In this document: one piece after another, positions 1 through 15,285 of the stretch | Position numbering within the stretch: the first letter of the stretch is position 1 | Layout: every line of letters starts with the position of its first letter | Origin: a virus | Reading direction: 5' to 3' (one strand) | Virus record (IMG/VR): IMGVR_UViG_3300025769_000214 | DNA: 46,189 nucleotides | Notes under the pieces: model-generated | Told to the model about the DNA's origin: nothing | Seen by the model: the letters and a program-made list of their open reading frames with translations, nothing else | Databases searched by the model: none | Position numbers and translations under genes: made by a program

Positions 1-127
1 CGGACAATTTCACGATCCGCAACAAGGAACAGCAAAGGTTTGGCACGAAGTTTGCAACTCTTACTATTAGACACAAAGAAACAGTCGAAGCCAAAAGTTG
101 GCTGAAGACTCTTCGCGAAGAACAGGC
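1..127. repeat. Terminal duplication, copy 1 (identical to 46063-46189); most likely a circular-assembly overlap
   Basis: Read base by base: cggacaatttcacgatccgc...cgcgaagaacaggc occurs at both window ends. Confidence 0.9.
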
Positions 128-185
128 AATTGAAAAGATCAATGACCTGATCAAAGAGCATGACTTGAAGACATTCTCACAATAA
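1..185 (+). CDS. 3' end of the YqaJ/lambda-Exo-like exonuclease gene (continuation of 45261..46189 across the junction)
   Basis: The frame from nt 3 (DNFTIRNKEQQRFGTKF...KEHDLKTFSQ*) is in phase with the open frame leaving the window end; stop TAA at 183-185. Confidence 0.7.
   Translation, partial: DNFTIRNKEQQRFGTKFATLTIRHKETVEAKSWLKTLREEQAIEKINDLIKEHDLKTFSQ
41..55 (+). promoter_or_regulatory. Sigma-54-type -24/-12 motif copy (inside the exonuclease CDS)
   Basis: TGGCACgaagtTTGC. Confidence 0.4.
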
Positions 186-193
186 AATGAGTT

Positions 194-208
194 TGGCACG
201 AAACTTGC
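194..208 (+). promoter_or_regulatory. Sigma-54-type -24/-12 promoter candidate upstream of ssb
   Basis: gtTTGGCACgaaacTTGCt; intergenic, 70 nt before ATG 278. Confidence 0.65.
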
Positions 209-210
209 TC

Positions 211-254
211 TCCTTAACAACGTACTAAGATAGTCTTAGTGCATCCTTAACAAC
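211..254 (+). promoter_or_regulatory. ssb leader element: 11-mer direct repeat flanking a hairpin/palindrome
   Basis: TCCTTAACAAC at 211-221 and 244-254; ACTAAGA-tag-TCTTAGT at 224-240. Confidence 0.6.
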
Positions 255-277
255 ACCTAAATACAGGTAAATCGATC

Positions 278-700
278 ATGGCTAGAAATGTCAACAAAGT
301 CTTCCTTCTTGGTAACGTAACCGAAACACCAGAACTGAAGCACACTCGCGGCGGCACAGCCGTAACGAACTTCTCCCTTGCGACGAACGAATCCTACAAA
401 GATTCTGAAGGCGAATGGCAGGAGAAAGCTCAGTTTCACAATATCACAGCATGGGGCAAGCAGGCTGAATTGATCACGGATCTAGTCCAGAAAGGACAGC
501 AGATGCACGTTGAAGGTTCAAACAACTATGGCTCCTATACGAAGGAAGTTGGTGGCGAAGAAGTTACCATTCCGACTACTGAAGTGAAGCTCCGCGAGTT
601 CACCTTAACTGGTGGCCGACCGAATGGAGCCGCACCTGCGGCCAACACCGGATCAGATGATGATCTTGGTGATGAAGATGAAGATGATCTTCCGTTCTAA
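278..700 (+). CDS. ssb: Single-stranded DNA-binding protein
   Basis: OB-fold SSB signature NKVFLLGNVTETPELKHT..G.AVTNFSLATNE, HNITAWGKQAE, and an acidic tail ending DDLPF. Confidence 0.9.
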   Translation: MARNVNKVFLLGNVTETPELKHTRGGTAVTNFSLATNESYKDSEGEWQEKAQFHNITAWGKQAELITDLVQKGQQMHVEGSNNYGSYTKEVGGEEVTIPTTEVKLREFTLTGGRPNGAAPAANTGSDDDLGDEDEDDLPF

Positions 701-713
701 ATGAATGACGATA

Positions 714-750
714 CCCCGTTCGGAGAAATCTGAGCGGGGCGTTCGTTTTC
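714..750 (+). terminator. Terminator-like hairpin after ssb
   Basis: Stem ccccgttcg / tgagcgggg (with G:U pairs) followed by cgttcgtttt. Confidence 0.4.
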
Positions 751-778
751 CCTTAATCCCGTATCTAAAGAAAACAAT

Positions 779-1009
779 ATGTCTGATATCAAAATGCAAA
801 TGATCGTCCACCTTCCAGAGCTAACGCTTGAACGCTTTAAGGCATGGAATATGGGAATGAATTTGCTCAAGTCTTCGCTCCCTGACGTTCGAGAAATCGG
901 ATTCAACATTTGCCGCGCAATTTCAATGCAGGACAAACTGAATCCGCTAGAACTGAAGTCGAGATTGACCGAACTTGAATCTCTTCTCACAAATGGAAAC
1001 CCAAAATAA
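779..1009 (+). CDS. Hypothetical protein
   Basis: 76-aa ORF between ssb and the annealing-protein gene; its stop TAA (1007-1009) shares its last base with the next ATG at 1009 (TAATG). Confidence 0.5.
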   Translation: MSDIKMQMIVHLPELTLERFKAWNMGMNLLKSSLPDVREIGFNICRAISMQDKLNPLELKSRLTELESLLTNGNPK

Positions 1010-1755
1010 TGAGTACAATCTCTCATAATCTGCCGGAAATCTTGGAGCGTTTATCGGCCTTGTTCCCTGCGGATCAGGTCAAATCGTTCCCGATGACCAC
1101 AACGCGCTCTGCGCCTTGGAAGGGAATGGCCGCATTCTACATCGACAACCGCGCCGTTCAGCAACGTCTGGATGATACGTGCGTCTGGAAGAATGAGTAC
1201 ATCGAAGATCCCCGTTCAGCCAAGTCGATCCTTTGCGGGATCACGATTCTGGTTGAGACCTTTCCGGGCCACTTCGAATGGATCTCACGTTGGGATGGTG
1301 CTGACAATACAGATATCGAAGCGACCAAAGGTGGTCTGTCCGGCTCTATGAGACGTGCGGCTGTCCAATGGGGAATCGGTCGATACCTGTATGACGTACC
1401 GGGTCAATGGTGTGAAATGAAAGATCCTTCTGGATCTGGTAAGCCGAAGTATTTCAAAGCGGAACCACGCATGCCTGCGAAATTCCTTCCGGGCGCATCA
1501 CGCGCAAGAAGTGTTTCTCAGTCAAGCTCCCCGGCTCCGGCTAAAGCGACCACAAAGAAGGCTCCGGCCAAGAAAGCCGCTCCTGAAAAGGTGAAGCTGA
1601 CTGCGGCCCAAACGTCAGAATTCAAATCCCTGACGGACGGACTTTCACGAACGGTAGTCAAAAACTACTACAACAAAATCATCAACGGCAAGATCTCATA
1701 TGAAGATGCGTGTGACGAAATTGCCGTGACGATTGCATCCAAACCGGATAAATAG
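1009..1755 (+). CDS. Rad52/Sak-type single-strand annealing protein with a Lys/Ala/Pro-rich basic region
   Basis: GSMRRAAVQWGIGRYLYD resembles the Rad52/Rad22 family core; the gene sits between ssb and the exonuclease module. Confidence 0.7.
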   Translation: MSTISHNLPEILERLSALFPADQVKSFPMTTTRSAPWKGMAAFYIDNRAVQQRLDDTCVWKNEYIEDPRSAKSILCGITILVETFPGHFEWISRWDGADNTDIEATKGGLSGSMRRAAVQWGIGRYLYDVPGQWCEMKDPSGSGKPKYFKAEPRMPAKFLPGASRARSVSQSSSPAPAKATTKKAPAKKAAPEKVKLTAAQTSEFKSLTDGLSRTVVKNYYNKIINGKISYEDACDEIAVTIASKPDK

Positions 1756-1756
1756 A

Positions 1757-2233
1757 ATGAATCATCGTTTACCCACAGACGTTCCCACTTCAGGAGAACG
1801 CTTCAATCTCACCCTGACCGGATCGGGTCTGGACAAGCGCAAACGTGAATTGGCTCACTTCGTCATTGACGGAGAAAAGTCTCGCGGAGTTCGTGTGTCC
1901 CTGTTCCTGACTCCACAGGTGAAGGCTGAATTCATGGAGTTGTTCGATATGGAATCGGATGATCTCTCAGCAACGGCATTGGACGCAAGGAAGTATGACT
2001 TCCGGTTCTCAGCCGAAATCGCTGTCACCAGATTGGCCAAAAACTCACACGGTATGTTTACGGAAGTAGACGAAAAGTACGACCGTACAAACGTGTATTG
2101 CAGTTATGACCTATCTGAGTTCCGCCAAGCTGACGGTGCATCGACTCTCGTTAAAGCTCTGAAGCAGAGCGAGAAGAAGTTCACCCGTAAACCTGCGGCT
2201 AAAAAGAAGGCTCCTGCGACAAAAGCGGAGTAG
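1757..2233 (+). CDS. Hypothetical protein with a basic AKK-rich C-terminal tail
   Basis: ATG at 1757 directly follows the upstream stop (the track start 1733 overlaps it); C-terminus is KKFTRKPAAKKKAPATKAE. Confidence 0.5.
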   Translation: MNHRLPTDVPTSGERFNLTLTGSGLDKRKRELAHFVIDGEKSRGVRVSLFLTPQVKAEFMELFDMESDDLSATALDARKYDFRFSAEIAVTRLAKNSHGMFTEVDEKYDRTNVYCSYDLSEFRQADGASTLVKALKQSEKKFTRKPAAKKKAPATKAE

Positions 2234-2260
2234 GACAGGCTCAAGTCAGTCGTTCTTCTT

Positions 2261-2299
2261 CCCCCGGTTGGATTCGTTTCTGGCCGGGGGGTTTTTTTT
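2261..2299 (+). terminator. Rho-independent terminator after the recombination module
   Basis: CCCCCGG-loop-CCGGGGG followed by G and T8. Confidence 0.75.
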
Positions 2300-2313
2300 G
2301 GCACGACTTTTGC
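2299..2313 (+). promoter_or_regulatory. Sigma-54-type promoter candidate (helicase operon)
   Basis: TGGCACgacttTTGC, directly abutting the terminator T-run; 43 nt before ATG 2356. Confidence 0.65.
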
Positions 2314-2355
2314 TCTATTACAGTAGTACACCGATAAACAAAATGTCCTACTATA

Positions 2356-2775
2356 ATGAGACGAAAAGAATCACCAACTAAGCCGCGCAAACGAATGTTC
2401 GATACAGTCGTAGTCGAATGCGTCCTGACAGGCTCCGCCGTATTCGGCTATGAAGTGCCGAAAGATCTGGACTATCTGGCCAAGTCAACCCCCGCGCTTG
2501 AACGCAAATTGAAAGCCGCCGGGTTCAAGGAATGCCTACCTGAGACTGTTGACGATAAAGGATATCCGCCGGGATCATTCCTAGCATTGCGGCGTAAGTT
2601 CGTAAACATCATTCTGTCCAGAACGGATTACTTCTATGAGACGTGGATTGCCGCTCACGACTTCTGCCTGAAGCACCCTGAACTGGCCAAGACGAAAGAC
2701 ATGCGGATTATGGTATTCAACCATTTCCGGGGAACAGAGACAAGTGAGATAATCGAAGCATTCCAGAAGAAGTAA
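2356..2775 (+). CDS. Hypothetical protein
   Basis: 139-aa ORF 43 nt downstream of the motif copy at 2299; its stop shares one base with the helicase start codon (TAATG). Confidence 0.55.
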   Translation: MRRKESPTKPRKRMFDTVVVECVLTGSAVFGYEVPKDLDYLAKSTPALERKLKAAGFKECLPETVDDKGYPPGSFLALRRKFVNIILSRTDYFYETWIAAHDFCLKHPELAKTKDMRIMVFNHFRGTETSEIIEAFQKK

Positions 2776-4571
2776 TGATCTTACGACCGTATCAAGACGA
2801 AACACATGACGCTCTCCTGTATCATTATGAGAAAGGAGAAAATCGACTCATGGCGCATCTGGCCACCGGGCTAGGTAAAACGTCCGGGGTTGCCGCATTC
2901 CTTCCAGAGAAGTTTCCCGATCTGGCAGACAAGGGAGTTGTATTCCTGTCTCACCGCCGGGAGATTCTATTCCAAGCCTACCAGACTTTCAAGCGTAGGT
3001 GGGGAACTGAGAAATGGATCGGAATCGAAATGGGCGAGTACCATTGCACCGGGGAAGAAGATTTCATCTTCTGCTCAGTCGATTCAATCGGACGGTACAT
3101 GGGGAACAGGATCGGCAAGCTCCAACATCGATATCCGGGAATTATCATCGTGGATGAAGGACACCACGTTTCGCTTGATGGGACTTGGGACAACATTCTG
3201 AACTTCTTCGGTGTAGGCTCAGACGAATCTCAGCACCATACATTTGCAGACGGTTCCAAGCCGCTCTCAGTTTTCCTTACGGCTACGCCAATCAGGGCAG
3301 ATGGGCAGGCTCTTCTACCGTTCTGTGATAAAATTGCCGTGTCGTTCGATATCAATTATGCGATCCGGGAAGGATGGTTGACCGATATCAAGGCGTACCA
3401 TGCTGAACTGACCAACGGAGACTACAAAGAATTCGATCCAGAAGAGCAGGTAGACTTCCTGATCAAGACGTGGATGAAATGGGGCAAAGGCTCCCGGACT
3501 CTGGCGTTCGCAAAGAACGTAGCTCAGTCTCAAATGTTGGCGGCTACGCTCGAAGCATCCTACGGGATCCGGGCCGGACACGTTGACGCAAAGACCGATG
3601 ACGAAACCCGGCAGAGCAATCTCAAACGCTTTGGAATGGACTATCAATCACCTGACTCTCTTGAGTTTCTTTCGAATCGATTGGTTCTGACTGAAGGGTA
3701 CGACAACCCGATGATCCAGACTGTACTGGACAACGCGCCAACAGACTCCCAAAGTCTCTACATCCAGAAGATCGGACGTGGACTGCGGACTGACCCTGCG
3801 TTGGATCTGGGGGCATACAGGACAGCTTCAGATCGAAAGGAAGCGATCCGTACATCCAGAAAACCTTTCCTGACATACATCACGGCCTTTCCGTTGAAGC
3901 ATGGTTTGGACATGCCTGCAACTCTATTCGGTCTGCCTAAGAATGTGGACAGCAACGGCAAGCTACTGTCTGAAGTTGTGGACGTTATCCAGTACGAAGA
4001 AGAAGAAATGCCGGAAGCTCCAACAAGGGATCTGGCCGGAATGAGCAGTCTGGACATAACGTTAAAACGTCAAGATCTGTGGACACAGACTGTCTACAAC
4101 GAAGAACTGAAGGCTCTGACTCCTTTGCGTTGGATCATGGGAGAATCTTTCGCCGCCCTGCGGCTCCCTATGAATCCTTGGGCCAAAGGGATTACGGAAC
4201 GGACTCCTATCATCATCCACTTCAATTTCAATGGACACGATTGGGAACTGCACCGGGTTCTGGAAGGTGGTTGGATTCAGGAGATCAAGCGACCTGCGAG
4301 ATCGAAGCACATGGATATGAATTATGTCGAATCTGACATACAGAAGGGGATCACGAAAGTTGACCGTTGGCTCCAAGAACATCAACCTGACCTGTTCGCA
4401 ATGATGCAACGGGATCACAATGGCCCCGCATCCAGTAAGATGAAAGAATACCTGAAGCGCAAAAAGGTGAAGTGCAACTTCGACGCGCTGACGATGGAAA
4501 CAGCCATGATATTGAAAGACAATGCATTGGCCATGCCCAAGCTCGAATCGTTCGGATTGAACACCGACTGA
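2775..4571 (+). CDS. Superfamily-2 DNA helicase (DEAD/DEAH-like)
   Basis: Motif I ATGLGKT, motif II VDEGHH, motif III LTATP, motif VI QKIGRGLR. Confidence 0.85.
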   Translation: MILRPYQDETHDALLYHYEKGENRLMAHLATGLGKTSGVAAFLPEKFPDLADKGVVFLSHRREILFQAYQTFKRRWGTEKWIGIEMGEYHCTGEEDFIFCSVDSIGRYMGNRIGKLQHRYPGIIIVDEGHHVSLDGTWDNILNFFGVGSDESQHHTFADGSKPLSVFLTATPIRADGQALLPFCDKIAVSFDINYAIREGWLTDIKAYHAELTNGDYKEFDPEEQVDFLIKTWMKWGKGSRTLAFAKNVAQSQMLAATLEASYGIRAGHVDAKTDDETRQSNLKRFGMDYQSPDSLEFLSNRLVLTEGYDNPMIQTVLDNAPTDSQSLYIQKIGRGLRTDPALDLGAYRTASDRKEAIRTSRKPFLTYITAFPLKHGLDMPATLFGLPKNVDSNGKLLSEVVDVIQYEEEEMPEAPTRDLAGMSSLDITLKRQDLWTQTVYNEELKALTPLRWIMGESFAALRLPMNPWAKGITERTPIIIHFNFNGHDWELHRVLEGGWIQEIKRPARSKHMDMNYVESDIQKGITKVDRWLQEHQPDLFAMMQRDHNGPASSKMKEYLKRKKVKCNFDALTMETAMILKDNALAMPKLESFGLNTD

Positions 4572-4574
4572 GTT

Positions 4575-4589
4575 TGGCACGATACTTGC
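4575..4589 (+). promoter_or_regulatory. Sigma-54-type promoter candidate (HNH gene)
   Basis: TGGCACgatacTTGC, 4 nt after the helicase stop; 45 nt before ATG 4634. Confidence 0.65.
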
Positions 4590-4633
4590 GCTATTAAAAG
4601 AAACGGCCCTAAACTTTAATAAGACCAATCGTT

Positions 4634-5065
4634 ATGAAAACTTGCATCACATGTAACATTCTGAAATCCCCCACGCTTTTCAATAAGCGGAAGAATGAAT
4701 GCAAAGTCTGCCAGAAACGCAGATTCAAAGAATGGGCTTCCAAGCCTGAGAACATTCTTCGCCAGTTGGTGAACAATGCCCGTTACCGTAGTGCCAAATT
4801 GGGACTCGAATTCGGTATCACTTACAAGGATCTGCACTTGCCGATGAATTGCCCGGTGTTGGGTATTCCGATTTTCGTTGGCGATGAAGTGTCAAGCGAA
4901 AACTCTCCAAGCATTGATCGCCTGAATCCAGAGAAGGGCTACATCCCCGGAAACTGTCTGGTGATCTCACATTTGGCCAACCGCATCAAAACGAATGCAT
5001 CAACCGACCAGATCCGTAAGGTCGCAGATTGGCTAGATGCAGTAACCGCAGAGCGTGAGCTATGA
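4634..5065 (+). CDS. HNH endonuclease
   Basis: Cys pairs CITC / CKVC and SIDRLNPEKGYIPGNCLVISHLANRIK (HNH-type core). Confidence 0.75.
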   Translation: MKTCITCNILKSPTLFNKRKNECKVCQKRRFKEWASKPENILRQLVNNARYRSAKLGLEFGITYKDLHLPMNCPVLGIPIFVGDEVSSENSPSIDRLNPEKGYIPGNCLVISHLANRIKTNASTDQIRKVADWLDAVTAEREL

Positions 5066-5090
5066 GCAGGAAGACTCACCCAATCGTGTT

Positions 5091-5105
5091 TGGCACGATC
5101 TTTGT
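5091..5105 (+). promoter_or_regulatory. Sigma-54-type promoter candidate, -12 variant TTGT
   Basis: TGGCACgatctTTGT; 67 nt before ATG 5172. Confidence 0.55.
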
Positions 5106-5171
5106 ACTACAAATGTGTATGTGGGCAACCATAATCTACGTATTGACAATCTTAACAGCAGGGTAATTGAA

Positions 5172-5717
5172 ATGGCAGTCTCGAAGTCAACTCACATGAA
5201 GGAAGCGTTCAAGGGAACGTGGGCCGAATCAGCGAAAAAAGAAGCGTTCGTGAAGGAGTGCATTGAACGTTTGACAGGCCACGTTGTCATTGACGAAGGT
5301 TTCGGTGCAGGATCGACCGACTACATCGAAGGTGCTTCAGGTGATCATGGCTACGAGAAGGCGGCTCCTGATCTTCAGATACAGGGAACAAATATCTGTG
5401 TTGAAGTGACGGGGCCGCTCCGCCCAATTCGTCGGGGATCAGATCTCCTGATCAACGTTGGGAAAGTGAAGTACGCTTTCAATCATCCAGAGCGTGAGTA
5501 TTGGGTAGCTTGGTCGAATGGTGTTACCCAAAACCGCCAAGGCGTTCTGATGATTCGAGTTGGAGAACAATTCGCCAGAGCGCAAAGACGCGGCATCATT
5601 GTCCGGGAACAATTCAAATCCCGGAACGTTATGCAGTTCTTCCACGCTGTCCCGGCCGATCACCATTGCGTGATCTCGTTCGACAAATTCCTACACTATC
5701 TGAAGAAAAAGAAATGA
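5172..5717 (+). CDS. Hypothetical protein (possible nuclease-like fold)
   Basis: ATG at 5172 lies downstream of the motif copy at 5091, so the track start 5055 would put that motif inside the gene; APDLQI...VEVTG weakly resembles PD-(D/E)XK. Confidence 0.5.
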   Translation: MAVSKSTHMKEAFKGTWAESAKKEAFVKECIERLTGHVVIDEGFGAGSTDYIEGASGDHGYEKAAPDLQIQGTNICVEVTGPLRPIRRGSDLLINVGKVKYAFNHPEREYWVAWSNGVTQNRQGVLMIRVGEQFARAQRRGIIVREQFKSRNVMQFFHAVPADHHCVISFDKFLHYLKKKK

Positions 5718-6046
5718 CACCCGAACAATTTGATAAGCTACCGCTCTATGCCCAACGGGTAATAGAACAGCAGGGCGAAGAAGTTGCCACTCTGAGAAGG
5801 ATCCAAGGATCCGTTGATCAGGATTCCGCTCATGGAGTTGTGCGGACGTATGATGACATGGGAAAGCAGGGGATCTTCAGCCTGAAGCAAGGTGATTACG
5901 TGCGGTTTCCAAAGCCGTACCCATTCGACCTACGATGGATCGACATTCACCTGACAGAAGATGGAGATCTGGTTGTTCGTGGTTCTAACAGAATTTCGAT
6001 CTCTCCATTCGCCGCAAACACCGTTCACTTAATCTTAGAAGACTAA
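5714..6046 (+). CDS. Hypothetical protein
   Basis: ATGA start/stop overlap with the upstream gene (MTPEQFDKL...). Confidence 0.55.
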   Translation: MTPEQFDKLPLYAQRVIEQQGEEVATLRRIQGSVDQDSAHGVVRTYDDMGKQGIFSLKQGDYVRFPKPYPFDLRWIDIHLTEDGDLVVRGSNRISISPFAANTVHLILED

Positions 6047-6315
6047 TGGCCGCTACAATAGATCCTAAACTAAAGACTCTCATGCTGACCCTTCCCGGAC
6101 ATTATGTTATCGGAATTACAGGCGGCAAGGTCATCAATGCGGAAGTTGAATACGTTGATGAAGGCTTAACGATTCCACAGTACCTTGTACTAGATCCAGA
6201 TCGGGTAACGTCCATTGTACTGTACGATACGCCTGACGGCCCCGAAAGTAGATTCAGGAAGATTTGTCCGGCATGGCTTCCACACTTTCCGAACACAGCC
6301 CGGACGTTAGCATGA
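6046..6315 (+). CDS. Hypothetical protein
   Basis: 89-aa ORF with start and stop coupled to its neighbours. Confidence 0.5.
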   Translation: MAATIDPKLKTLMLTLPGHYVIGITGGKVINAEVEYVDEGLTIPQYLVLDPDRVTSIVLYDTPDGPESRFRKICPAWLPHFPNTARTLA

Positions 6316-6902
6316 GCATTACAAAAGCCAAACGAGACAAGATCCTGAACCAGATCGTAACCGAATGCAAGGCGGAATTCTACCGCGCAGAAATCGAAGC
6401 GATCCTGAAGAAGAATCTCGCACCGGGCAAGACCGCGAGTAGCGCAAAGGCCAAAGGCAGACGCGCACAGCAATGGCTACGCGACAGGCTCCGAACAATC
6501 CTGAAATCCGTATGGTACGCTGAGTTGCGCGATCCAGATCACGTACATTCTATCGGAATGGGCCAATCTGGTGCAGATATCGTACTTTCCCCAACTGCCA
6601 AAGGGGTGTTCCCTTTCGCTTGCGAAGTCAAGAACACAGAGAAGATAGGGTTCTGGCCCACAGTCAGGCAGGCCGAAGCTAACAGGGGCAATCAACTCCC
6701 CCTGATCATGTTCGCCAAGAATCGCACTAAGCCTTGGATAGCCGTTGAAGCCGAAGTATTTCTTGCCATGTATGGGAACTTGGCACAGTATTTGCAATCA
6801 TATGGTCATATGCACCACGATAATCGCCTGCCAGATATGCTTACAGAATTGCAGGATATGATAAAAGAGATAAATGAACAGATTCAAAAAGAAAAGGGCT
6901 AA
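6312..6902 (+). CDS. PD-(D/E)XK nuclease, Holliday-junction-resolvase-like
   Basis: GADIVLSP...FACEVKN fits a D...E-x-K catalytic pattern; ATGA overlap with the upstream stop. Confidence 0.5.
   Translation: MSITKAKRDKILNQIVTECKAEFYRAEIEAILKKNLAPGKTASSAKAKGRRAQQWLRDRLRTILKSVWYAELRDPDHVHSIGMGQSGADIVLSPTAKGVFPFACEVKNTEKIGFWPTVRQAEANRGNQLPLIMFAKNRTKPWIAVEAEVFLAMYGNLAQYLQSYGHMHHDNRLPDMLTELQDMIKEINEQIQKEKG
6781..6795 (+). promoter_or_regulatory. Sigma-54-type promoter candidate (primase), inside the upstream CDS
   Basis: TGGCACagtatTTGC; 79 nt before ATG 6874. Confidence 0.5.
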
Positions 6903-8331
6903 TCCCTACCAATTTTCACTCGTACCAGAAACATTATGGAACCCAAACAAACCACTTCCGGCCCTAGTTTTTTCCCGCATTTTGTCGGGCGTGTCGTATC
7001 AAGACTCGTCATACTTGACGAATTCAGGAAGGACGTTACAGATTCCGTCCGGCACTTCATGGGTGTCAATCGAAACAATCCGCGAAGATATTTCGTCGGC
7101 TCTGGGTTTGATCTTCACCCGGCGCAAAATCCAATATGCGATCCAGAAGTTAAAGGAGAGATCGATGTTAGCTTCTACTTTAATGGAACCAGATACCAAG
7201 GGTCGGTACGGGCTGTTGATGAAGCCGACGATTCCTGCTTCAACAGTAACAACGATTGACCCGGTGAAGGAATTCAAAATACATGCTTACGGCAAAACGT
7301 CAGCTTTCGTTCATGGTGGGATTGCTCATTCTGGAAACGGAGTTGAATGGATCCAACGCCAAGCCGGAGACGTTATGCGTCTCATGGATAGCGTAGCCAA
7401 GAACGGAAACCCGGATGCTTTATTCCGCACAGTTGGAATGTGGCGTGACCGGAAAAGTGTCCGCAAAGTGAACGAACCAGTATACCTTCCTTGGATCGTT
7501 CTGGATATCGACGTACCCGGAGACATGTACCACGCTCACGACACGACCAAAACGATTCTGAGCGACCTGACGGATGCCGGGGTGGACATGGACAGAACCT
7601 TCGTGTCCTTCTCCGGATCCAAGGGGTTTCACATTGCGATTGCCACGTCTCAGATTGGGTCTCCGATCTTCCGGGATTCAGACAATGCGCGTGGATGCAT
7701 GATCAAGTTTGTGAAGTTCCTGACCGATCACAAGTTCGATCCGTCTACCCTGTCACCATTGCAGATGCTCAGACTTACTGGAAGTCAGCACCAGAAAACG
7801 CAGATGTTCAAAACGACTTGGGTGGCCACACGTTTCAACGGCCTGAAGCTCCATTCAATTATTGAGCAGGCCAAATCATTCAAGCCATTCGTCTACCCGG
7901 ATCCTACCGTTGGCGGAGTAGAAGAAGAAATGCATGAAGCATTCGAAGCGAAAGCTGAAGCTCAAGCCAAGGAAGCGTGGGAAGCGTTGCAGGCAGAAGC
8001 GAATCAACCCGCAGGCCCGAAATGGCATAGTCCACGCGGCCCGTTGAAGCAGATCATTGAGAACGGCGTAGCTCGCGGTGAAGATTGGGGAAACAAGTCA
8101 GGGCGTGATTGGGCGGCTTTTACCCTGTCCTGTTATTGCTTGGCGCATCCGGAACAACACAATGCCATGAGAAAAATGCTTGGCATGCTCCCGGAGAATG
8201 AAGCCACGTTTGAAACCGTACATGGAACAATGGACGAATGGAACGAAAGATGTTCTCCGCCGTTGACAGGTAAGGAGATTTCACAGAAAGTCGGATCTGC
8301 CGACCGATACCTACAAAGGAGACAAAAATGA
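6874..8331 (+). CDS. Archaeo-eukaryotic-type primase-polymerase (AEP) with a C-terminal PriCT-like region
   Basis: WIVLDIDVPGD (DxD motif), SGSKGFHIAI (sGxGxH motif), C-terminal GRDWAAFTLSCYCLAH. Confidence 0.7.
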   Translation: MNRFKKKRANPYQFSLVPETLWNPNKPLPALVFSRILSGVSYQDSSYLTNSGRTLQIPSGTSWVSIETIREDISSALGLIFTRRKIQYAIQKLKERSMLASTLMEPDTKGRYGLLMKPTIPASTVTTIDPVKEFKIHAYGKTSAFVHGGIAHSGNGVEWIQRQAGDVMRLMDSVAKNGNPDALFRTVGMWRDRKSVRKVNEPVYLPWIVLDIDVPGDMYHAHDTTKTILSDLTDAGVDMDRTFVSFSGSKGFHIAIATSQIGSPIFRDSDNARGCMIKFVKFLTDHKFDPSTLSPLQMLRLTGSQHQKTQMFKTTWVATRFNGLKLHSIIEQAKSFKPFVYPDPTVGGVEEEMHEAFEAKAEAQAKEAWEALQAEANQPAGPKWHSPRGPLKQIIENGVARGEDWGNKSGRDWAAFTLSCYCLAHPEQHNAMRKMLGMLPENEATFETVHGTMDEWNERCSPPLTGKEISQKVGSADRYLQRRQK

Positions 8332-8696
8332 CCGTAGAACAAGCGATCCGAAACGGAGTTGAATACTTCAACGAATCCCAAACTGATTCAAGCAGGCATC
8401 CCCTGTCCAGAATCGAAGGAAACATGTTGGTGCAATGCGTACTGACCGCCGTACAGAAGCAGGTCGATGAACTACGCACAAAACTGGAACTTGCCGCGTC
8501 TCAGAGCGATCTGAAGACACAGAGAGAACTGGATTGGGCTACGGACATGATTGTTGCGTTCATCCGAATGGAGAACCAAATGTCCTTGGACGTTCGCGCT
8601 GACGAGATACAGAAATTCGCCGCCGGATTCAACTTACGGGTTGAACACGAAGACGGAATTATTAAACTGGAACTACAAAAATCGGGATCTAGCTGA
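8328..8696 (+). CDS. Hypothetical protein
   Basis: 122-aa ORF; ATGA overlap with the primase stop. Confidence 0.55.
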   Translation: MTVEQAIRNGVEYFNESQTDSSRHPLSRIEGNMLVQCVLTAVQKQVDELRTKLELAASQSDLKTQRELDWATDMIVAFIRMENQMSLDVRADEIQKFAAGFNLRVEHEDGIIKLELQKSGSS

Positions 8697-9069
8697 CTTC
8701 GATTGTTGCGTCGAATAGAATCTCGAACTTGCGAGTTGCGTCATTCAGGTAGATTTCATCACCCGGTTCATCATCGCCAACGGTGATCTTCTTCACACGC
8801 GCAATGGCCGTGACCGTGTTGGTCACATCGATACCCATTGTGGTAGGAATGAAGGTTCCAGAGAACCAAGTTTCAAATGCGGTGATCAGCGCATCCATGC
8901 CAAGCGTTGCCGTAGTCGAAACTCCGGAACTTGCTGTCATTGAATAAGTATAGTCTTCAACCGTGAAGGGAGAAGTTTGAGAGATAGCGGTAGTGGGATC
9001 CGTGTAGCCTGTCGGCTTCGGAACATTACTATCGTTATCAGCGAAAAGCATGTCGCTAGTAAGTGCCAT
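8689..9069 (-). CDS. Hypothetical acidic Thr/Ser-rich protein; lone reverse-strand gene in the replication arm
   Basis: 126-aa ORF filling the gap between + genes; its 3' end overlaps the 3' end of 8328..8696 by 8 nt. Confidence 0.5.
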   Translation of the reverse strand: MALTSDMLFADNDSNVPKPTGYTDPTTAISQTSPFTVEDYTYSMTASSGVSTTATLGMDALITAFETWFSGTFIPTTMGIDVTNTVTAIARVKKITVGDDEPGDEIYLNDATRKFEILFDATIEVS

Positions 9070-9111
9070 GAAAGTAGTAGGTTTGGTGAACGTTCAGATT
9101 CTCCTACGGTT

Positions 9112-9126
9112 TGGCATGATATTTGA
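9112..9126 (+). promoter_or_regulatory. Degenerate sigma-54-type motif upstream of polB
   Basis: TGGCATgatatTTGA; 28 nt before ATG 9154. Confidence 0.4.
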
Positions 9127-9153
9127 TGCATTATAGATAAAGACCAGAAAATT

Positions 9154-11532
9154 ATGAATCACTTACTGTTTGGATCGGACGAAACTGAAAGGATCGTGGG
9201 CATGGCCGCTCACGGCAATCATCAGATCCGACAATGGATCCGGGACGAGAATGATGTTGTCTCCGATACCATACATGACGTGCATCCTTTTATATACACA
9301 ACGCCGGAAGGAATCGAAGTCATGCGTAGAGCCGTTGGGCCGCATGCCTTTAAGGTCAAGGAAATGTCCGGGGCGAACGAAATGAATCGTCTTGCGGTTT
9401 TCCCCGACATGGATATTTTCAGAGCCGCCCGGAAGGATCTCTACAATGATCCTGTATTCTCCAATTCTGGTAAGAACGAATTCTTCACCTACGGAGACCC
9501 GGTTGCCGCCTATCTGGTACAGTCAGGGAAGACTTTCTTCAAGGGCATGAACCCGCAGACCGTCCACCGGATGCAGGTCGATATTGAGACCTACCGAATC
9601 GATGGGTTTCCAGATGCGAAACTGGATCCAATAACCGTTATTGCGATCAGCGACAATCGTGGATTCGAGAAGGTTCTATTCCAGACCCACACACCGGACG
9701 TTGGCCTTGGGAAGAAGGCTCCGGAATTCGCGGAATGTATGGACAATGAAACACAAATGCTCCGGGAGTTGGTCAAGATCATTCAACGCCGGGATCCTGA
9801 CATTCTGGAAGGCCACAACTTCTTCGCTTACGATATGCCGTATATCACGGAACGTTGCGAACAGCTTGGTGTCAACTTTGCAATCGGCCGGGACTCGAAA
9901 GTTCCCTACTCCTATGCGGCTGAGAAGAAATTCGCAGAGCGGGATATCAAGTACACCAATTTCATTGCAGGCGGTCGATCCATAATCGACACAATGTTCC
10001 TAGCAATCGATTGGGACGTGTACACCCGGAAACTGGAAAACGTCACCCTGAAGGGAGTTGCCAAAACGCTAGGCGTTTCGCCAGAGAACCGAACATACAT
10101 TGAAGGTGCTGACCTTGCTCAAACTTGGTTGGACGATCCAAGCCGGGTTCTTGATTACGCTCTTGATGACGTTCTTGAGACACGCGGGATCTCAGATCAG
10201 TTATGTAGCTCCCAATTTGCCCTGACCCAGATGATGCCCCTTCCATACCAGAAGGTTCACCTATCTGGAAAGGCTTCCGTCATTCAGTCGTTGTTCATTC
10301 GGGAATATCTGCGCGAACGCGCATCCATACCGACTTCCAAGCCCGGTTCTCAGGAATGGGGCGGCTACACCGACATTTTCAAGACAGGCGTGTACGACAA
10401 GGTATGGTACATTGACGTTGCTTCCCTGTACCCGTCGATCATGCTGAACTATGATATCAAGCCTGCTCAAGATCACCTTGGACTGTTTCAGGGGATCCTG
10501 CAAAGCCTGACTGACCTACGCTTCCAGACAAAAGGGGCGATGAAGAAAACGTCGAACAAAACCCGACTCGCTGAACTGGACGCTAGACAGCAGGCGTTCA
10601 AAATCATCATCAACTCATTCTACGGTATGCTTGGTGCAGGCGGGATCGCCCTGTTCGCTACCGTCTCCGAAGCAGACAGGGTTGCCCGTACCGGGCAGGG
10701 ATTGTTGCGGAGAATGATGGAGCTAATCGACTCATCTGGTGCGGAGATTATCGAATGTGATACGGACGGGGTACTGTGTACCGCTCCCCCGGATAAGGAC
10801 TTCTTCAAGGATGGGCCGGACTTCTGCCAATGGGTTACAGACCGAATGCCGGAAGGAATCATTGCAGACTTCGACGGTGCATATCTGAAGATGTTGTCCA
10901 GAGCCAAGAAGAACTATGCCTTGGTTGACCTGAACGGAAAGATCACGATCAAGGGTGGATCATTCAAATCCAGATCGCTTGAACTGCTCTTCCGGGATTA
11001 TATCACCCTGCAACTTGGTAGTCTACTTGACCGCGATTCCGTAGCGTTGCGAAATCGACACATTGACTTCCAGAAGATGATCATGTCTCCAATTGAACCT
11101 GCTCAGATTGCCCGTACCGTCACGCTGAAGGAGAGTTTCGACGTGTATGATGATAAGGTAGCTGAAGGTGGAAACCGCGCCCCGCAGTATGAAATCGGAA
11201 AGGCATTGGTCAGGGGGGAAGGTAGGCGAGTACAAAAAGGTGATCGAATCAGTTATGTAATCTGTGGCACGAAATTGATCTCAAAAGTGAAGTCATATGT
11301 GGACGCTACTGCCCTAGAATTTGTACGTCCCGGAACGCACCACACTAAATTTTACCTTCAGAAGCTACGGAAAATAGCGGAAGGAAGGTTTGGCATGTTC
11401 TTTGCAGAAGAAGATGTAGACAAGGTATTTCCCCGCACACCACCATCGAACACAATCGATATGTTTGGCGGCGTGGAATTCAACGGAGTAGAAATCAACA
11501 ATCAAATCGTACAGCAATATGAGCCTATCTAA
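9154..11532 (+). CDS. Family-B DNA polymerase with 3'-5' exonuclease domain
   Basis: ExoI VDIETY, ExoII GHNFFAYDMPYI, ExoIII YALDDVLET, motif A DVASLYPSIM, motif B KIIINSFYGMLG, motif C ECDTDGV. Confidence 0.9.
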   Translation: MNHLLFGSDETERIVGMAAHGNHQIRQWIRDENDVVSDTIHDVHPFIYTTPEGIEVMRRAVGPHAFKVKEMSGANEMNRLAVFPDMDIFRAARKDLYNDPVFSNSGKNEFFTYGDPVAAYLVQSGKTFFKGMNPQTVHRMQVDIETYRIDGFPDAKLDPITVIAISDNRGFEKVLFQTHTPDVGLGKKAPEFAECMDNETQMLRELVKIIQRRDPDILEGHNFFAYDMPYITERCEQLGVNFAIGRDSKVPYSYAAEKKFAERDIKYTNFIAGGRSIIDTMFLAIDWDVYTRKLENVTLKGVAKTLGVSPENRTYIEGADLAQTWLDDPSRVLDYALDDVLETRGISDQLCSSQFALTQMMPLPYQKVHLSGKASVIQSLFIREYLRERASIPTSKPGSQEWGGYTDIFKTGVYDKVWYIDVASLYPSIMLNYDIKPAQDHLGLFQGILQSLTDLRFQTKGAMKKTSNKTRLAELDARQQAFKIIINSFYGMLGAGGIALFATVSEADRVARTGQGLLRRMMELIDSSGAEIIECDTDGVLCTAPPDKDFFKDGPDFCQWVTDRMPEGIIADFDGAYLKMLSRAKKNYALVDLNGKITIKGGSFKSRSLELLFRDYITLQLGSLLDRDSVALRNRHIDFQKMIMSPIEPAQIARTVTLKESFDVYDDKVAEGGNRAPQYEIGKALVRGEGRRVQKGDRISYVICGTKLISKVKSYVDATALEFVRPGTHHTKFYLQKLRKIAEGRFGMFFAEEDVDKVFPRTPPSNTIDMFGGVEFNGVEINNQIVQQYEPI
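11391..11405 (+). promoter_or_regulatory. Sigma-54-type motif variant inside the polB 3' end
   Basis: TGGCATgttctTTGC; 114 nt before ATG 11519. Confidence 0.4.
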
Positions 11533-11758
11533 AATGACACCAATCGAATACTTCGATCCGCAGGAAGCAGACCAAGCTCCGGTCTACTTTATCGTCCGGG
11601 CCAAACGAGTCGCAGGATTCGAATGGCAAAGGCACGAAATGTACTTAGCGACATGGGATCCTGTTTCCGGCTTCATGTGCAACTACTGGTCAACCATTCA
11701 GGATGCAGTTTTGCATGACGTTACTCATTTTCACATCACAGATATACCAGTTCAATGA
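11519..11758 (+). CDS. Hypothetical protein
   Basis: 79-aa ORF; an alternative ATG lies at 11534 just after the polB stop. Confidence 0.5.
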   Translation: MSLSKMTPIEYFDPQEADQAPVYFIVRAKRVAGFEWQRHEMYLATWDPVSGFMCNYWSTIQDAVLHDVTHFHITDIPVQ

Positions 11759-12015
11759 ACATCAAGAAATTCACAAAACTATCGCGTCTGGTCACGAACA
11801 ATTTCGAGATCCACACCGTAAGACGTGATCCGGTTCACAAGACTCTGCACGTCACAGTTTCGTATTCCGGGCCGGAAGCAGGGAAGATGAAATTCACCAA
11901 GGGCCAGAAGGACACGTTCTACAAGGAACAGGCCAAGGAAATGATCGATCCCCTGCTCATGCTCATGTCGAAATTGAAGCCACGTTGCAAAACTCTGAAG
12001 CTCCATGTTAGATGA
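11755..12015 (+). CDS. Hypothetical protein
   Basis: 86-aa ORF; ATGA overlap with the upstream gene. Confidence 0.5.
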   Translation: MNIKKFTKLSRLVTNNFEIHTVRRDPVHKTLHVTVSYSGPEAGKMKFTKGQKDTFYKEQAKEMIDPLLMLMSKLKPRCKTLKLHVR

Positions 12016-12202
12016 AATCATTGATCGGTTATCCGATCACAATATCTCCGTTGCAGATCTAGCGATATCGCATGATCCGGAGACCGGGCATTTTGTAGTA
12101 GCAGTCGTGATTGATATTCCGAACATGCTACCCCCGGCAAAACTTCAGGAAGCCATGTTGGTCTCATTGCTTCAAACACTTGAACCTAAAACTGGAAACT
12201 AA
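12005..12202 (+). CDS. Hypothetical protein
   Basis: 65-aa ORF bridging to the RNR gene (TAATG coupling at 12202). Confidence 0.45.
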   Translation: MLDEIIDRLSDHNISVADLAISHDPETGHFVVAVVIDIPNMLPPAKLQEAMLVSLLQTLEPKTGN

Positions 12203-13887
12203 TGTCAGAATTCCGCACTCCACTAGCGCAAACCATATTCGAAAATAAATATCAACTCCACGAAGGAGAGACGTGGCGCGAACGCGCCGAAAAGATCGTT
12301 GATTGGGTCTGTGGTACTATGGGCGATACCACCGAAGCCCTGCTCCCGCAAGATGAACGGGACGAACTTGTAGAAGCCATTGCCACGATGAAGTTCATGC
12401 CCGGTGGACGCTACATCTACTATGCCGGGAGAGACGCAAACTTCTGGAACAATTGCTTTCTCCTGAAGGCAGAAGAAGACACACGCGAAGAATGGGCTGA
12501 ACTGGCCAACCGTGTAACGTCATGCCTAATGACAGGCGGCGGAATCGGAGTTGATTATTCGGTGATCAGACCACGCGGCGCAACCCTGAAGAGAACAGGG
12601 GGCGAAGCATCCGGGCCTATCCCCCTGATGAACATCGTGAACGAGATCGGACGAAATGTAATGCAGGGTGGCTCCCGGAGAAGTGCCATATACGCTTCCC
12701 TGAACTGGCAACACGGAGACGCAGAAGAGTTTCTGCATGCGAAGGATTGGAAGAACCAGATGATTCCCGGCACAGAGATTTCTATCCACGATGCCAAGAA
12801 TGCCGACTTCAACTTCCCGGCTCCATTGGACATGACGAATATCAGTCTGAATTATGATGATGCGTTCATCACGGCCTGCACCAATGATCAGGGAGAGTTT
12901 GACGCGACAGGGATCCCGGAGATTTTCTTCCAGAACGTCAGACAAGCAATGTCATCCGGGGAACCCGGCTTCAGCTTCAACTTTGGCGATAAGGAGAACG
13001 AAACGCTGAGAAATGCGTGTTGCGAAGTAACGTCTGAAGACGATTCTGACGTTTGCAACCTTGGTTCTGTGAATTTAGGACGAATTGAGTCGATAAATGA
13101 ATTCATGGAGATTTCACAATTGGCCACACGGTTCCTAATGTGCGGGACGCTCAGAGCCGATCTTCCATTCCATAAGGTTTATGAAGTTCGCAAGAAGAAT
13201 CGCCGCCTTGGATTGGGTCTCATGGGAATGCATGAATGGCTCCTGAAACGTGGCGAACGATACGAAGTGACTCCGGAGCTACACCAATGGTTGAAAGTCT
13301 GGAAAGCAACGTCAGATCTGACTGCATGGTTCACCGCAGAAGAGTTCGGTGTCTCTCAGCCCGTTGCTGTACGCGCAATCGCTCCCACAGGGACTATCGG
13401 CCTTCTGGCCGGGACAACTACCGGAATCGAACCCCTGTTCGCTGTGGCGTACAAGAGACGCTATCTGACGAATGGTACAGAATGGAAGGAGCAGTACGTA
13501 ATTGACGGGACTGCAAAGGAAATGATCGACCTGTACGGGTTGGATCCATATTCGATTGACTCAGCCGTAGATCTGGCCAATGATCCTGTCCGGAGAATGA
13601 AGTTCCAAGCTGACGTTCAGGACTACGTGGATCAGGCGATCAGTAGCACGATCAATCTCCCGGAATGGGGAAGCCTACTGAACAACGAATCAAAGGTACA
13701 CCAGTTTGCGGTCGATCTGGCGAGACTCGCGCCCCGGCTTCGTGGGTTCACCGTCTACCCGGATGGAGCAAGGGGTGGACAACCATTGACTCCATGTGAC
13801 TACTATTTAGCACACGAAAATGAAGGCGTGGAGTTTGATTCCGTCGATGTATGCGAATTAACAGGGGGCGGAAGCTGTGGATTGTAG
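12202..13887 (+). CDS. Ribonucleotide reductase catalytic chain, probably class II (cobalamin-dependent)
   Basis: RNR active-site region CCEVTSEDDSDVCNLGSVNL and C-terminal Cys pair CELTGGGSCGL. No beta-subunit (NrdB) gene is present in the genome, which is why class II is inferred. Confidence 0.8.
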   Translation: MSEFRTPLAQTIFENKYQLHEGETWRERAEKIVDWVCGTMGDTTEALLPQDERDELVEAIATMKFMPGGRYIYYAGRDANFWNNCFLLKAEEDTREEWAELANRVTSCLMTGGGIGVDYSVIRPRGATLKRTGGEASGPIPLMNIVNEIGRNVMQGGSRRSAIYASLNWQHGDAEEFLHAKDWKNQMIPGTEISIHDAKNADFNFPAPLDMTNISLNYDDAFITACTNDQGEFDATGIPEIFFQNVRQAMSSGEPGFSFNFGDKENETLRNACCEVTSEDDSDVCNLGSVNLGRIESINEFMEISQLATRFLMCGTLRADLPFHKVYEVRKKNRRLGLGLMGMHEWLLKRGERYEVTPELHQWLKVWKATSDLTAWFTAEEFGVSQPVAVRAIAPTGTIGLLAGTTTGIEPLFAVAYKRRYLTNGTEWKEQYVIDGTAKEMIDLYGLDPYSIDSAVDLANDPVRRMKFQADVQDYVDQAISSTINLPEWGSLLNNESKVHQFAVDLARLAPRLRGFTVYPDGARGGQPLTPCDYYLAHENEGVEFDSVDVCELTGGGSCGL

Positions 13888-13889
13888 TT

Positions 13890-13904
13890 TGGCACGATAC
13901 TTGA
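13890..13904 (+). promoter_or_regulatory. Sigma-54-type promoter candidate, -12 variant TTGA
   Basis: agtTTGGCACgatacTTGa shares an 18-mer with the copy at 4572-4589; it starts 3 nt after the RNR stop. Confidence 0.5.
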
Positions 13905-13922
13905 TGTATCATGGTCAGAACG

Positions 13923-13972
13923 AAAATTGTTCACCTTCTTCAACAAGTAACAGATCAGGGGTTAATAATAAG
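13923..13972 (+). repeat. 50-nt conserved element, copy A (abuts ATG 13973)
   Basis: aaaattgttcaccttcttc-aac-aagtaaca-g-atcaggggtta-ataataag-ATG. Confidence 0.8.
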
Positions 13973-14272
13973 ATGGGAATAGCAGACGGAACTATGGCAG
14001 ACGAAGCCGCACCACGCGGGATCCTAGCCGTAGCAAATAATCTTGAGCAACTGCAAGACGGTTTCTCAGCATTGGATCAGCAGGTTGGTGGCGGACACTA
14101 CAAAGACCTGAAGATTCAGCCAGTAGAATACATTCACGCAAACAATCTTGGTTTCATCGAAGGTTGCATCGTGAAGTATATCACCCGGTTCAGGAACAAG
14201 AACGGCAAGCAGGATCTTCTGAAGATCAAGCACTTTGTCGATCTCCTGATCCAACTCGAATACCCGGACTAA
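13973..14272 (+). CDS. DUF3310-like phage protein
   Basis: GGGHYKDLKIQPVEYIHANNLGFIEGCIVKYITRFRNKNGKQDLLKIKHF matches my memory of the DUF3310 core. ATG 13973 was chosen because the motif copy at 13890 lies inside the longer track ORF. Confidence 0.65.
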   Translation: MGIADGTMADEAAPRGILAVANNLEQLQDGFSALDQQVGGGHYKDLKIQPVEYIHANNLGFIEGCIVKYITRFRNKNGKQDLLKIKHFVDLLIQLEYPD

Positions 14273-14340
14273 ACCGGGAACCAACTTCTGCGATACTCGT
14301 AGGAGAAAATCACCCCTTAACTAAAAAAAGGAAAAGATAC

Positions 14341-14982
14341 ATGCGAAAGCATTCAATCATTGCCATGCTCTTTATGGCATTTCTACTCGTAGGCTGTTCT
14401 GACAATTCCGTATCGGAAGAATCAGTCGGTCGTAGCGAAGCCATTCCAGAGTACATTGCATCCAACGTACAACCTGAATTCACTCTCGAATCATTCGGAG
14501 CGCAGAAAGGTGATATCGTTGAAATCAAAGTCACATTTGATAACGAAGGCGATGTACGAACGTTCTCTACCAACGGGCCTGCCAGAAAAGTCGGACTCTA
14601 TGCATATGAAATCACACGATTCGTAAGCATAAACGCGATAGATCAAGAACAAGCCGTGTTAGTAACCGTGACGATCAATGGAGTCGAATATGCGTCATTC
14701 AATACCGAAGATTATCTAGTTGCGCCTGCCGTGTACAATGATAAATTCCTTTGGGCGATGGAAGCCGTAGTGATTAACCCCGGTGCTGAGATCAACGGAT
14801 TCGGAGAAGTAAACAGACACGGAGCAGGTAAAATGCAGGAAGTTGGGTGTTGGAATTCCAAATGTTGCTCATCGTGGGTTTGGGGCATTCCGCTCGTTAC
14901 CGATGGAATTGAATTCCTAGAAGGTGAAGAGAACTGCACAGGTACTTGCTATACAGGGTACGACCGATGCGGATTGGCATAA
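14341..14982 (+). CDS. Lipoprotein with a Cys-rich C-terminus
   Basis: Signal peptide plus lipobox MRKHSIIAMLFMAFLLVGC; C-terminal CWNSKCCSSW...CTGTCYTGYDRC. Confidence 0.7.
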   Translation: MRKHSIIAMLFMAFLLVGCSDNSVSEESVGRSEAIPEYIASNVQPEFTLESFGAQKGDIVEIKVTFDNEGDVRTFSTNGPARKVGLYAYEITRFVSINAIDQEQAVLVTVTINGVEYASFNTEDYLVAPAVYNDKFLWAMEAVVINPGAEINGFGEVNRHGAGKMQEVGCWNSKCCSSWVWGIPLVTDGIEFLEGEENCTGTCYTGYDRCGLA

Positions 14983-15227: not shown

Positions 15228-15242
15228 ATTGAAACATGGTAA

Positions 15243-15285
15243 GCCCGGTCTACGTTGAATTGATTTTCACTAGACCGGGTTTTAT
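15243..15285 (+). terminator. Rho-independent terminator after the second lipoprotein gene
   Basis: gCCCGGTCTA ... TAGACCGGGt followed by ttttat. Confidence 0.65.

Follow-up and report, generated by a model that had tools for sequence, protein, structure and literature searches.

Candidate sigma-54 promoters heading the early and replication operons of a phage genome

We analysed a phage contig of 46,189 nucleotides (nt), IMG/VR virus record IMGVR_UViG_3300025769_000214, which as a whole is called the window here, for a short motif resembling the -24/-12 element of sigma-54 promoters. Nineteen sites of the class TGGCA(C/T)-N5-TTG(C/T/A) were found, spread over the early and replication regions, and they are probably promoters of the sigma-54 (RpoN) holoenzyme of the host, activated in trans by an enhancer-binding protein that would also come from the host. 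Sigma-54 promoters are the one bacterial class that is unable to fire without an ATP-driven activator. Staking the early and replication programme on sigma-54 would make infection depend on the state of a signalling pathway of the host.

Definition, placement and conservation of the sites

Bases 1-127 of the window recur exactly as bases 46063-46189. With this terminal overlap of 127 nt the contig is circular or terminally redundant, and it measures about 46,062 bp when the overlap is counted once. The exact pattern TGGCAC-N5-TTGC gave 10 matches on both strands with the duplicate counted, against 0.09 expected from shuffled sequences, and with at most one mismatch 18 matches were obtained against 2.3 expected. 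Once site 41 and its duplicate at 46103 were merged, eight unique exact copies were left on the + strand, the same number that a first-pass annotation of this DNA had given. The relaxed pattern TGGCA[CT]-N5-TTGN yielded 19 unique sites, 18 of them on the + strand and one on the - strand. All nine + strand coordinates that the first-pass annotation had listed for the replication arm (41, 194, 2299, 4575, 5091, 6781, 9112, 11391 and 13890) are true matches, but its inventory had missed the exact - strand copy at 39219-39233.

The spacer measured 5 nt in 19/19 sites, and spacers of 2-4 and 6-9 nt gave only 0-2 matches per strand, as expected from the constant spacing described earlier. The sequence TGGCACGA occurred 14 times on the + strand and 0 times on the - strand. 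The consensus of the 18 + strand sites was agtTTGGCACGAT-N-tTTGc, with the endings TTGC (10 sites), TTGT (6) and TTGA (2). In its extended form, TTGGCACGAT-N-tTTGc, it agrees with the classical sigma-54 consensus YTGGCACG-N4-TTGCW, which is said to come from Barrios et al. 1999; the match takes in the CG after TGGCA as well as the exact spacing of the -24/-12 element, and the earlier claim of such a match was thus upheld. Across the 19 sites the GG doublet and the G of the GC doublet are invariant, GG and GC being 10 bp apart, and the C of the -12 GC is present in 11/19 sites, with T or A in the others.

The scoring with a weight matrix that the first-pass annotation had proposed was done with a matrix built from the 19 sites. 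Their own scores ranged from 20.6 to 29.2 bits, and the best other position in the genome reached 10.2 bits, a gap of about 10 bits to all remaining positions. The next-best score falls below the mean maximum of random sequences (13.8 bits), so the 19 sites are a discrete class, without degenerate copies in the late arm. Because 1 of 30 random sequences reached 24 bits, one site could arise by chance; nineteen could not. Neither the pattern nor the weight matrix detected a site, strong or weak, in the - strand structural (late) arm at 15.7-37.6 kb, in agreement with what had been noted before. The sites are as follows.

41..55, + strand: TGGCACGAAGTTTGC, 24.0 bits; in the 3' end of the YqaJ-like exonuclease gene, in tandem with 194, upstream of ssb
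46103..46117, + strand: duplicate of 41-55 in the terminal overlap, not an independent copy
194..208, + strand: 27.7 bits; 69 nt upstream of ssb (278-700); conserved in the relatives C82 and L002 (see below)
2299..2313, + strand: directly 3' of the strong terminator hairpin 2260-2291; 42 nt upstream of the gene for a protein of 139 amino acids (aa; 2356-2775)
4575..4589, + strand: 44 nt upstream of the endonuclease VII/HNH gene (4634-5065)
5091..5105, + strand: -12 variant TTGT; 66 nt upstream of the ATG at 5172 (open reading frame, ORF, ending at 5717)
6781..6795, + strand: within the PDDEXK nuclease gene, at its 3' end; the primase gene (6874-8331) begins 78 nt farther on
9112..9126, + strand: TGGCAT...TTGA; 27 nt upstream of polB (9154-11532)
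11391..11405, + strand: within polB, at its 3' end; the gene at 11519-11758 begins 113 nt farther on
13890..13904, + strand: TTGA variant; where the ribonucleotide reductase gene ends; followed by the DUF3310-like gene and the gene at 14164-14982
37834..37848, + strand: first of a tandem trio at the late/early boundary
37933..37947, + strand: second of the trio; 29.2 bits, the top score of the genome
38049..38063, + strand: third of the trio; TGGCAT...TTGT
39197..39211, + strand: rightward early site, interleaved with the leftward site 39219-39233 across a 7-nt gap
39219..39233, - strand: 20.6 bits; sole - strand site, exact; upstream of the - strand genes 38824-39075 and DUF7178 (38110-38763)
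39388..39402, + strand: 48 nt upstream of the small early ORF 39451-39651
39667..39681, + strand: 32 nt upstream of the early ORF 39714-39899
41552..41566, + strand: inside, or at the start of, ORF 41489-41920
42571..42585, + strand: 43 nt upstream of the early ORF 42629-42994
44374..44388, + strand: 40 nt upstream of the early ORF 44429-44683

Where a gene follows a site, the distance from the motif end to the next start codon is 27-113 nt and the gene is co-oriented. The 18 + strand sites lie on the strand of the + gene block, and the lone - strand site precedes - strand genes. The first-pass annotation had placed the copies mostly in non-coding gaps just upstream of the genes that they face; their nearness and orientation held, but sites 41, 6781, 11391 and possibly 41552 lie within the 3' end of the upstream ORF and not in a non-coding gap.

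The flanks of the sites differ along the genome. In the replication arm (41-13890) 7/9 sites are preceded by GTT and most end in TTGC; among the + strand sites of the early region (37834-44374) 5/9 are preceded by AGT and 5/9 end in TTGT. These may be two subclasses of strength or timing, in a comparison of 9 versus 9 sites and with a pattern that is less clear in the closest relative.

This closest relative is the IMG/VR contig 3300006916_000082 (C82, comprising loci L001, L003 and L034), with a polB that is 58% identical. C82 has at least 16 motif copies, at orthologous places: ssb is preceded by two, and the 139-aa gene, the primase gene and polB have one each ahead of them. Four tandem copies spaced 26-34 nt stand at the late/early boundary (L003 9104-9204), with an extra GGCACGA fragment just upstream of the array. 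The ortholog of site 5091 likewise ends in TTGT, and the late arm of C82 has zero copies. In alignments of the regions upstream of polB and ssb the motif stands out as a conserved block between diverged flanks, and in the polB intergenic region no block other than site 9112 is conserved. L002, a relative at a greater distance (polB 47%, GC content 57%), has retained the ssb site alone. A metagenome scan with a polB profile found only relatives of at most 40% identity, nearly all of them motif-poor, and megablast against phages gave no cultured relative at the nucleotide level. The phage itself is present in the samples ERZ27275032, SRR6830113, SRR6191113 and JGI 3300022068.

The sites 39197 (+) and 39233 (-) form a near-palindromic pair on opposite strands, in which each site lies within the transcribed leader of the other. 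In C82 a divergent pair is interleaved in the same way, again with 7 nt between the sites (L003 10852-10888), and pairs 4-7 nt apart recur in unrelated viral contigs (L065 4152-4185, L048 5450-5483, L004 223-256). The pair may be a switch, because two polymerases could not hold both sites together.

A scan of IMG/VR for TTTGGCACGA-N3-TTGC found at least 120 loci. Among the matches listed, at least 36 loci had three or more copies of the relaxed motif on one strand, where chance would give about 0.08 per 10 kb per strand; three of these loci are pieces of C82. C82 aside, BLASTP found no protein in common between this phage and the motif-rich loci among the matches listed, and protein searches gave no informative cultured relatives of these contigs. 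In many of these contigs the copies form dense clusters on one strand, before genes or at operon heads. L086 has exactly one site per short gap ahead of ten consecutive genes; L065, L083, L095, L058 and L087 carry clusters of 3-4 sites at operon heads or divergence points; L048, L073 and L110 show tandem pairs followed by a hairpin; and L049 has 21 copies over both strands within 6.5 kb of a 147-kb contig. Together with L004, these unrelated motif-dense contigs have GC contents of 33-50%. The only signature of sigma-54 or of a bacterial enhancer-binding protein (bEBP) among the matches listed was in L097, which encodes an enhancer-binding protein and has one motif copy per strand. Since unrelated phages share the motif at the heads of early operons, a conserved reader in the host is suggested.

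Reading and opening of the sites

About 60 ORFs, including every ORF of at least 250 aa except the already annotated polB, were scanned with Pfam, and none contained a sigma-54, sigma-70, RNA polymerase or Sigma54_activat domain. PHROGs added nothing relevant on a reader or an activator. No GAFTGA motif, bEBP-type Walker A motif or RpoN box was present in any of the six frames. The genome has one Walker A motif, in the superfamily 2 (SF2) helicase; no P-loop ATPase other than this helicase and no AAA+ protein is encoded. The earlier statement that the phage encodes neither a sigma-54 nor a bEBP was therefore borne out.

It is highly improbable that the motif is read by a sigma-like or RNA polymerase-retargeting factor of the phage itself, with a specificity that would be merely sigma-54-like. 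Phages with their own sigma factors exist, phiEco32 and T4 among them, and most early proteins of this phage are unannotated: no family could be detected for more than 20 early ORFs, and remote homologues of RNA polymerase or sigma factors may be present among the unannotated ORFs. However, a factor of this kind would have to match the whole extended sigma-54 consensus with its exact spacing, and to our knowledge no factor other than the sigma-54 holoenzyme has this specificity. The motif also heads the earliest operons and is used by contigs that share no proteins with this phage, and the domain scans of the ORFs speak against such a factor as well. DUF7178, the one conserved gene with its own motif copy, occurs in a podophage contig that has none.

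The DUF7178 protein (38110-38763) had been considered as a reader or activator. Its gene has a motif copy of its own and is conserved in C82, and the protein has no match to solved structures. The podophage contig in question (66% GC) bears DUF7178 with zero copies of the motif, and for this reason DUF7178 was rejected as a reader or activator. The protein encoded at 14164-14982 had no match in Pfam, PHROGs or the PDB, and its single database relative is identical to it.

The host probably belongs to the Bacteroidota/Rhodothermota group, because Shine-Dalgarno sites are lacking and the nearest cultured relatives are phages of Salinibacter. A Shine-Dalgarno match was found in 1 of 31 well-supported genes, and the leaders are A-rich; scarcity of such sites is a known habit of Bacteroidota. 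For TerL and polB, Salinibacter phages were the only matches among cultured phages. In C82 the start codon of polB follows the candidate promoter at a distance of just 12 nt, so that the mRNA would have little or no leader. Sigma-54-type promoters with mapped starts are described in Flavobacterium psychrophilum, where they drive groES/EL, lon, dnaK and envelope-stress genes (PMC9723704), and in Bacteroidota and Planctomycetota sigma-54 promoters are enriched at genes for chaperones and proteases (PMC12316311). As this class drives highly expressed proteostasis genes in Bacteroidota, it would be a plausible one for a phage to copy (PMC9723704, PMC12316311).

Other promoter signals were looked for in the same sequence. 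Sigma-70-type promoters matched at chance level. For the Bacteroidota primary-sigma promoter (-33 TTTG/-7 TAnnTTTG), the -7 box was counted 12 times over the two strands together, and no copy had a -33 element at a distance of 17-22 nt.

Several observations weigh against sigma-54 promoters with a host activator. The sigma-54 holoenzyme needs an ATPase activator, yet k-mer and dyad searches of the 200 nt upstream of the sites found no shared enhancer or dyad above control level. Of the 18 + strand sites, 8 carry T or A where the -12 GC has its near-invariant C. The tandem trio at 37834-38063 has no downstream ORF and faces the 3' end of the convergent - strand DUF7178 gene. Three cultured phages of Bacteroidota-group hosts, Salinibacter M8CRM-1 (which has the same gene order as this phage), Flavobacterium laban6-1 and Cellulophaga phi38:1, have 0 copies each, so the trait is not general for such hosts. 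Some motif-rich contigs also appear, by a noisy measure, to use Shine-Dalgarno sites, and the link to Bacteroidota may therefore fail for part of them.

The trio bears on the question whether the sites are promoters at all. They could instead bind the sigma-54 holoenzyme, or another protein, as roadblocks, insulators, operators or a titration sink, which we consider very unlikely. The sigma-54 holoenzyme makes stable closed complexes, and the E. coli holoenzyme has been described as binding at many intragenic sites without obvious transcription (PMC4591121). Such roles would also suit the tandem arrays without ORFs, that is the trio here and the four copies of C82, and the nearly palindromic 39197/39233 pair. 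However, 17/19 sites are single, oriented and not palindromic, they stand at short distances upstream of co-oriented genes, L086 has its single site in each short gap, and no other promoter-like signal is enriched on the arm. The first-pass annotation had itself raised the operator alternative, and in our check the sites proved asymmetric and oriented; the sole palindrome, the 39197/39233 pair, is accounted for by two divergent promoters. As for the trio, it could give an antisense or non-coding RNA, allow read-through to the early genes or hold sigma-54 holoenzyme.

The absence of a shared enhancer bears on how the complexes would be opened. Sigma-54 promoters could be opened by a route specific to the phage, either by a small non-AAA+ protein, encoded or co-injected, or by weakened -12 elements that need no activator. 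In favour of this are the lack of an enhancer upstream of any site, the replacement of TTGC by TTGT or TTGA in 8/18 sites, the early ORFs without a family, and the AGT and GTT flanks (5/9 early and 7/9 replication sites), which hint at two differently timed subclasses. Yet we know of no ATP-independent activator of wild-type sigma-54, the heads of the early operons would fire ahead of any phage protein, the unrelated motif-rich phages have no protein family in common with this phage by BLASTP, and the contrast between subclasses rests on few sites and is blurred in C82. A phage-specific route is thus unlikely.

We favour the host sigma-54 holoenzyme with a host activator, the latter being one of three options named in the first-pass annotation. 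Every part of its sigma-54-class reading that can be tested on sequence held up. In this mechanism the sites would drive every rightward unit, from the early genes at 39.2 kb over the junction and then through ssb, helicase, primase, polB and ribonucleotide reductase to about 15 kb. The - strand site would drive the small leftward DUF7178 operon, and the late, structural arm would rely on another signal. The closed complexes would be opened by an enhancer-binding protein of the host, since the phage has no AAA+ ATPase and the earliest operons would fire before any phage protein is made. This activator may act from solution, with no specific DNA site, because the sites have no shared upstream enhancer. 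The early programme of the phage would in this way be plugged into a stress or proteostasis regulon of the host, and the activator may itself be switched on by infection, in the manner of PspF. Wang and Gralla reportedly observed in 1998 that non-consensus -12 elements increase unactivated transcription; the non-consensus -12 bases in 8/18 + strand sites may likewise lower the barrier to opening.

More tentatively, the motif-rich contigs could represent a recurrent class of uncultured phages with immediate-early transcription from enhancer-less sigma-54 promoters, a generalization that we regard as possible but doubtful. Either a host activator without a DNA site would be triggered by the stress of injection or infection, the phage sensing and exploiting the stress response, or a phage factor would do without an AAA+ ATPase in opening the closed complexes of sigma-54. 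Where 3-5 sites stand in tandem, they might also capture the pool of host sigma-54 holoenzyme.

Genome layout and other elements

The genes around the sites are arranged as follows.

39.2 kb onward, + strand: small unannotated early ORFs
45261..185, across the junction, + strand: YqaJ-like exonuclease, 328 aa, absent from linear ORF lists
278 to about 15 kb, + strand: replication block, which begins with ssb (278-700), a Rad52-like annealing protein, the 139-aa protein and the SF2 helicase (2775-4571)
Middle of the replication block, + strand: endonuclease VII/HNH, the gene from 5172, PDDEXK nuclease, primase and polB
End of the replication block, + strand: class II ribonucleotide reductase and the DUF3310 protein
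Late arm, - strand: Mu-type head genes (protease, gpT capsid), terminase and tail genes
32961-34418, within the late arm, + strand: Mu-like portal

The terminator at 2260-2291 is the only strong one in the replication arm, and site 2299 lies immediately downstream of it. Scans of the genome for tRNA genes and Rfam families gave no matches. The ssb leader has a hairpin of 9 bp at 222-242, GUACUAAGA-N3-UCUUAGUGC, that is kept nearly base for base in C82. The leader has a folding energy of -12.9 kcal/mol (z-score -3.4), and the hairpin may be a translational operator or an element of RNA stability.

Two blocks upstream of the first late gene are common to the window (37570-37850, - strand) and C82 (L003 8775-9120). 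Block 1 resembles a promoter of extracytoplasmic function sigma factors, GAAAC-N16-CGTA (37654 in the window, 8912 in L003), and neither phage has a second element of this kind at the head of its late arm. Block 2 is the G-rich TATGGGGGGT(A)GGGG. Either block could be a late promoter, or a signal for packaging or replication.

Three copies of a second repeat, AAATTGTTCACCTTCTT-N11/13-ATCAGGGGTT, which is about 40-50 nt long, lie at 13924-13963 (+), 39608-39645 (+) and 32507-32469 (-), with a partial copy at 32189-32173 (-). It ends just 5' of a start codon twice and just 5' of site 39667 once. The repeat is not in C82, and it could be a further regulatory element or the remnant of a mobile element.

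ORF 8689-9069 (126 aa) lies on the - strand, opposite to the other genes of the replication arm; it is 56% identical in C82 and has no family match. No sigma-54-type site precedes it, and a sigma-70-like TTCATA-17-TATAAT on the - strand overlaps the polB promoter region. For the endonuclease VII/HNH protein (4634-5065), PHROGs gave side matches to 'Srd anti-sigma factor' and 'decoy of host sigma70' with E of about 1e-4, which are probably not meaningful, the endonuclease matches being at 1e-30.

The class II ribonucleotide reductase gene (12202-13887) is not in C82. Its closest genomic matches (53-63%) are short contigs binned as Kapaibacterium single-cell, Nitrosopumilus, Gammaproteobacteria and Actinomycetota, and these are probably viral sequence within the bins. 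The best match, at 63%, is a 'Candidatus Kapaibacterium' single-cell contig, and similar matches occur in metagenome-assembled genomes of several phyla. The gene was set aside as a pointer to the host: the flanks of the matching contigs have no other gene or motif in common with the phage, and the hint is weak.

Comparison with known systems

If the favoured reading is true, sigma-54 use by phages would grow from a curiosity to a full transcription strategy, and the success of infection would hinge on the stress or proteostasis regulon of Bacteroidota-type hosts. The sequence signature, which already marks many unrelated uncultured phages, would aid host prediction, as the host must carry rpoN, and the annotation of transcription units in viral metagenomes. 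A further question would then be what activator acts on sigma-54 promoters that lack an enhancer when the phage DNA enters the cell.

The cellular promoters recognized by RpoN, such as the SM4 class of F. psychrophilum, have the same GG-N10-GC architecture and extended consensus as the phage sites. They differ in that cellular sigma-54 promoters usually have an upstream activator site and number few per 46 kb, whereas the phage has 19 per 46 kb with no shared enhancer; in addition, nearly half of the phage sites have a non-consensus base in place of the -12 C.

In the E. coli psp system, envelope stress caused by infection releases the sigma-54 activator PspF. The system offers a model of sigma-54 promoters that are switched on by the infection itself, but psp is a defence and repair regulon of the host, with an enhancer that binds PspF, and no phage genes are known to be driven by it. 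The analysis of this phage identified no Psp component.

The tandem early promoter clusters of T7 (A1-A3) and lambda (pL/pR) are similar in another respect: strong promoters read by the host head the early region, with divergent pairs at operon boundaries, an arrangement that the candidate sites of this phage share. The T7 and lambda promoters are of the sigma-70 class and require no activator, whereas those described here would be of the sigma-54 class.

The nearest precedent is the Pseudomonas phage YuA, whose rpoN dependence has been shown by experiment (PMC5053324, PMC10914365); sigma-54 use by phages has been called 'rare but not unprecedented' (PMC5053324). YuA was the sole described sigma-54-dependent phage found in our literature search, the journal coverage of which was incomplete, and no early or replication programme of the present kind was found in it. 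The first-pass annotation had regarded the strategy as undescribed. YuA is a precedent, with three late promoters, but the larger scale and the probable use for early and middle genes set this phage apart. Like this phage, YuA and its relative M6 are virulent and have no RNA polymerase or enhancer-binding protein of their own; they use the host sigma-54 for part of their programme, as this phage probably does. In the YuA record three -24/-12 promoters are annotated, each of them in the region of the structural and lysis (late) genes, and 0/3 of them are within one mismatch of TGGCAC-N5-TTGC. The YuA pattern of a few weak late sites beside sigma-70 promoters differs from the one seen here: this phage has 19 near-consensus sites at early and replication genes, none in the late arm and no enriched sigma-70-type signal. 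It thus probably depends on the sigma-54 machinery of its host far more than any described phage. Sigma-54 use by a phage is already known from YuA, and what appears to be new here is the scale, the near-consensus quality of the sites and the early and middle class of the genes that they would serve.

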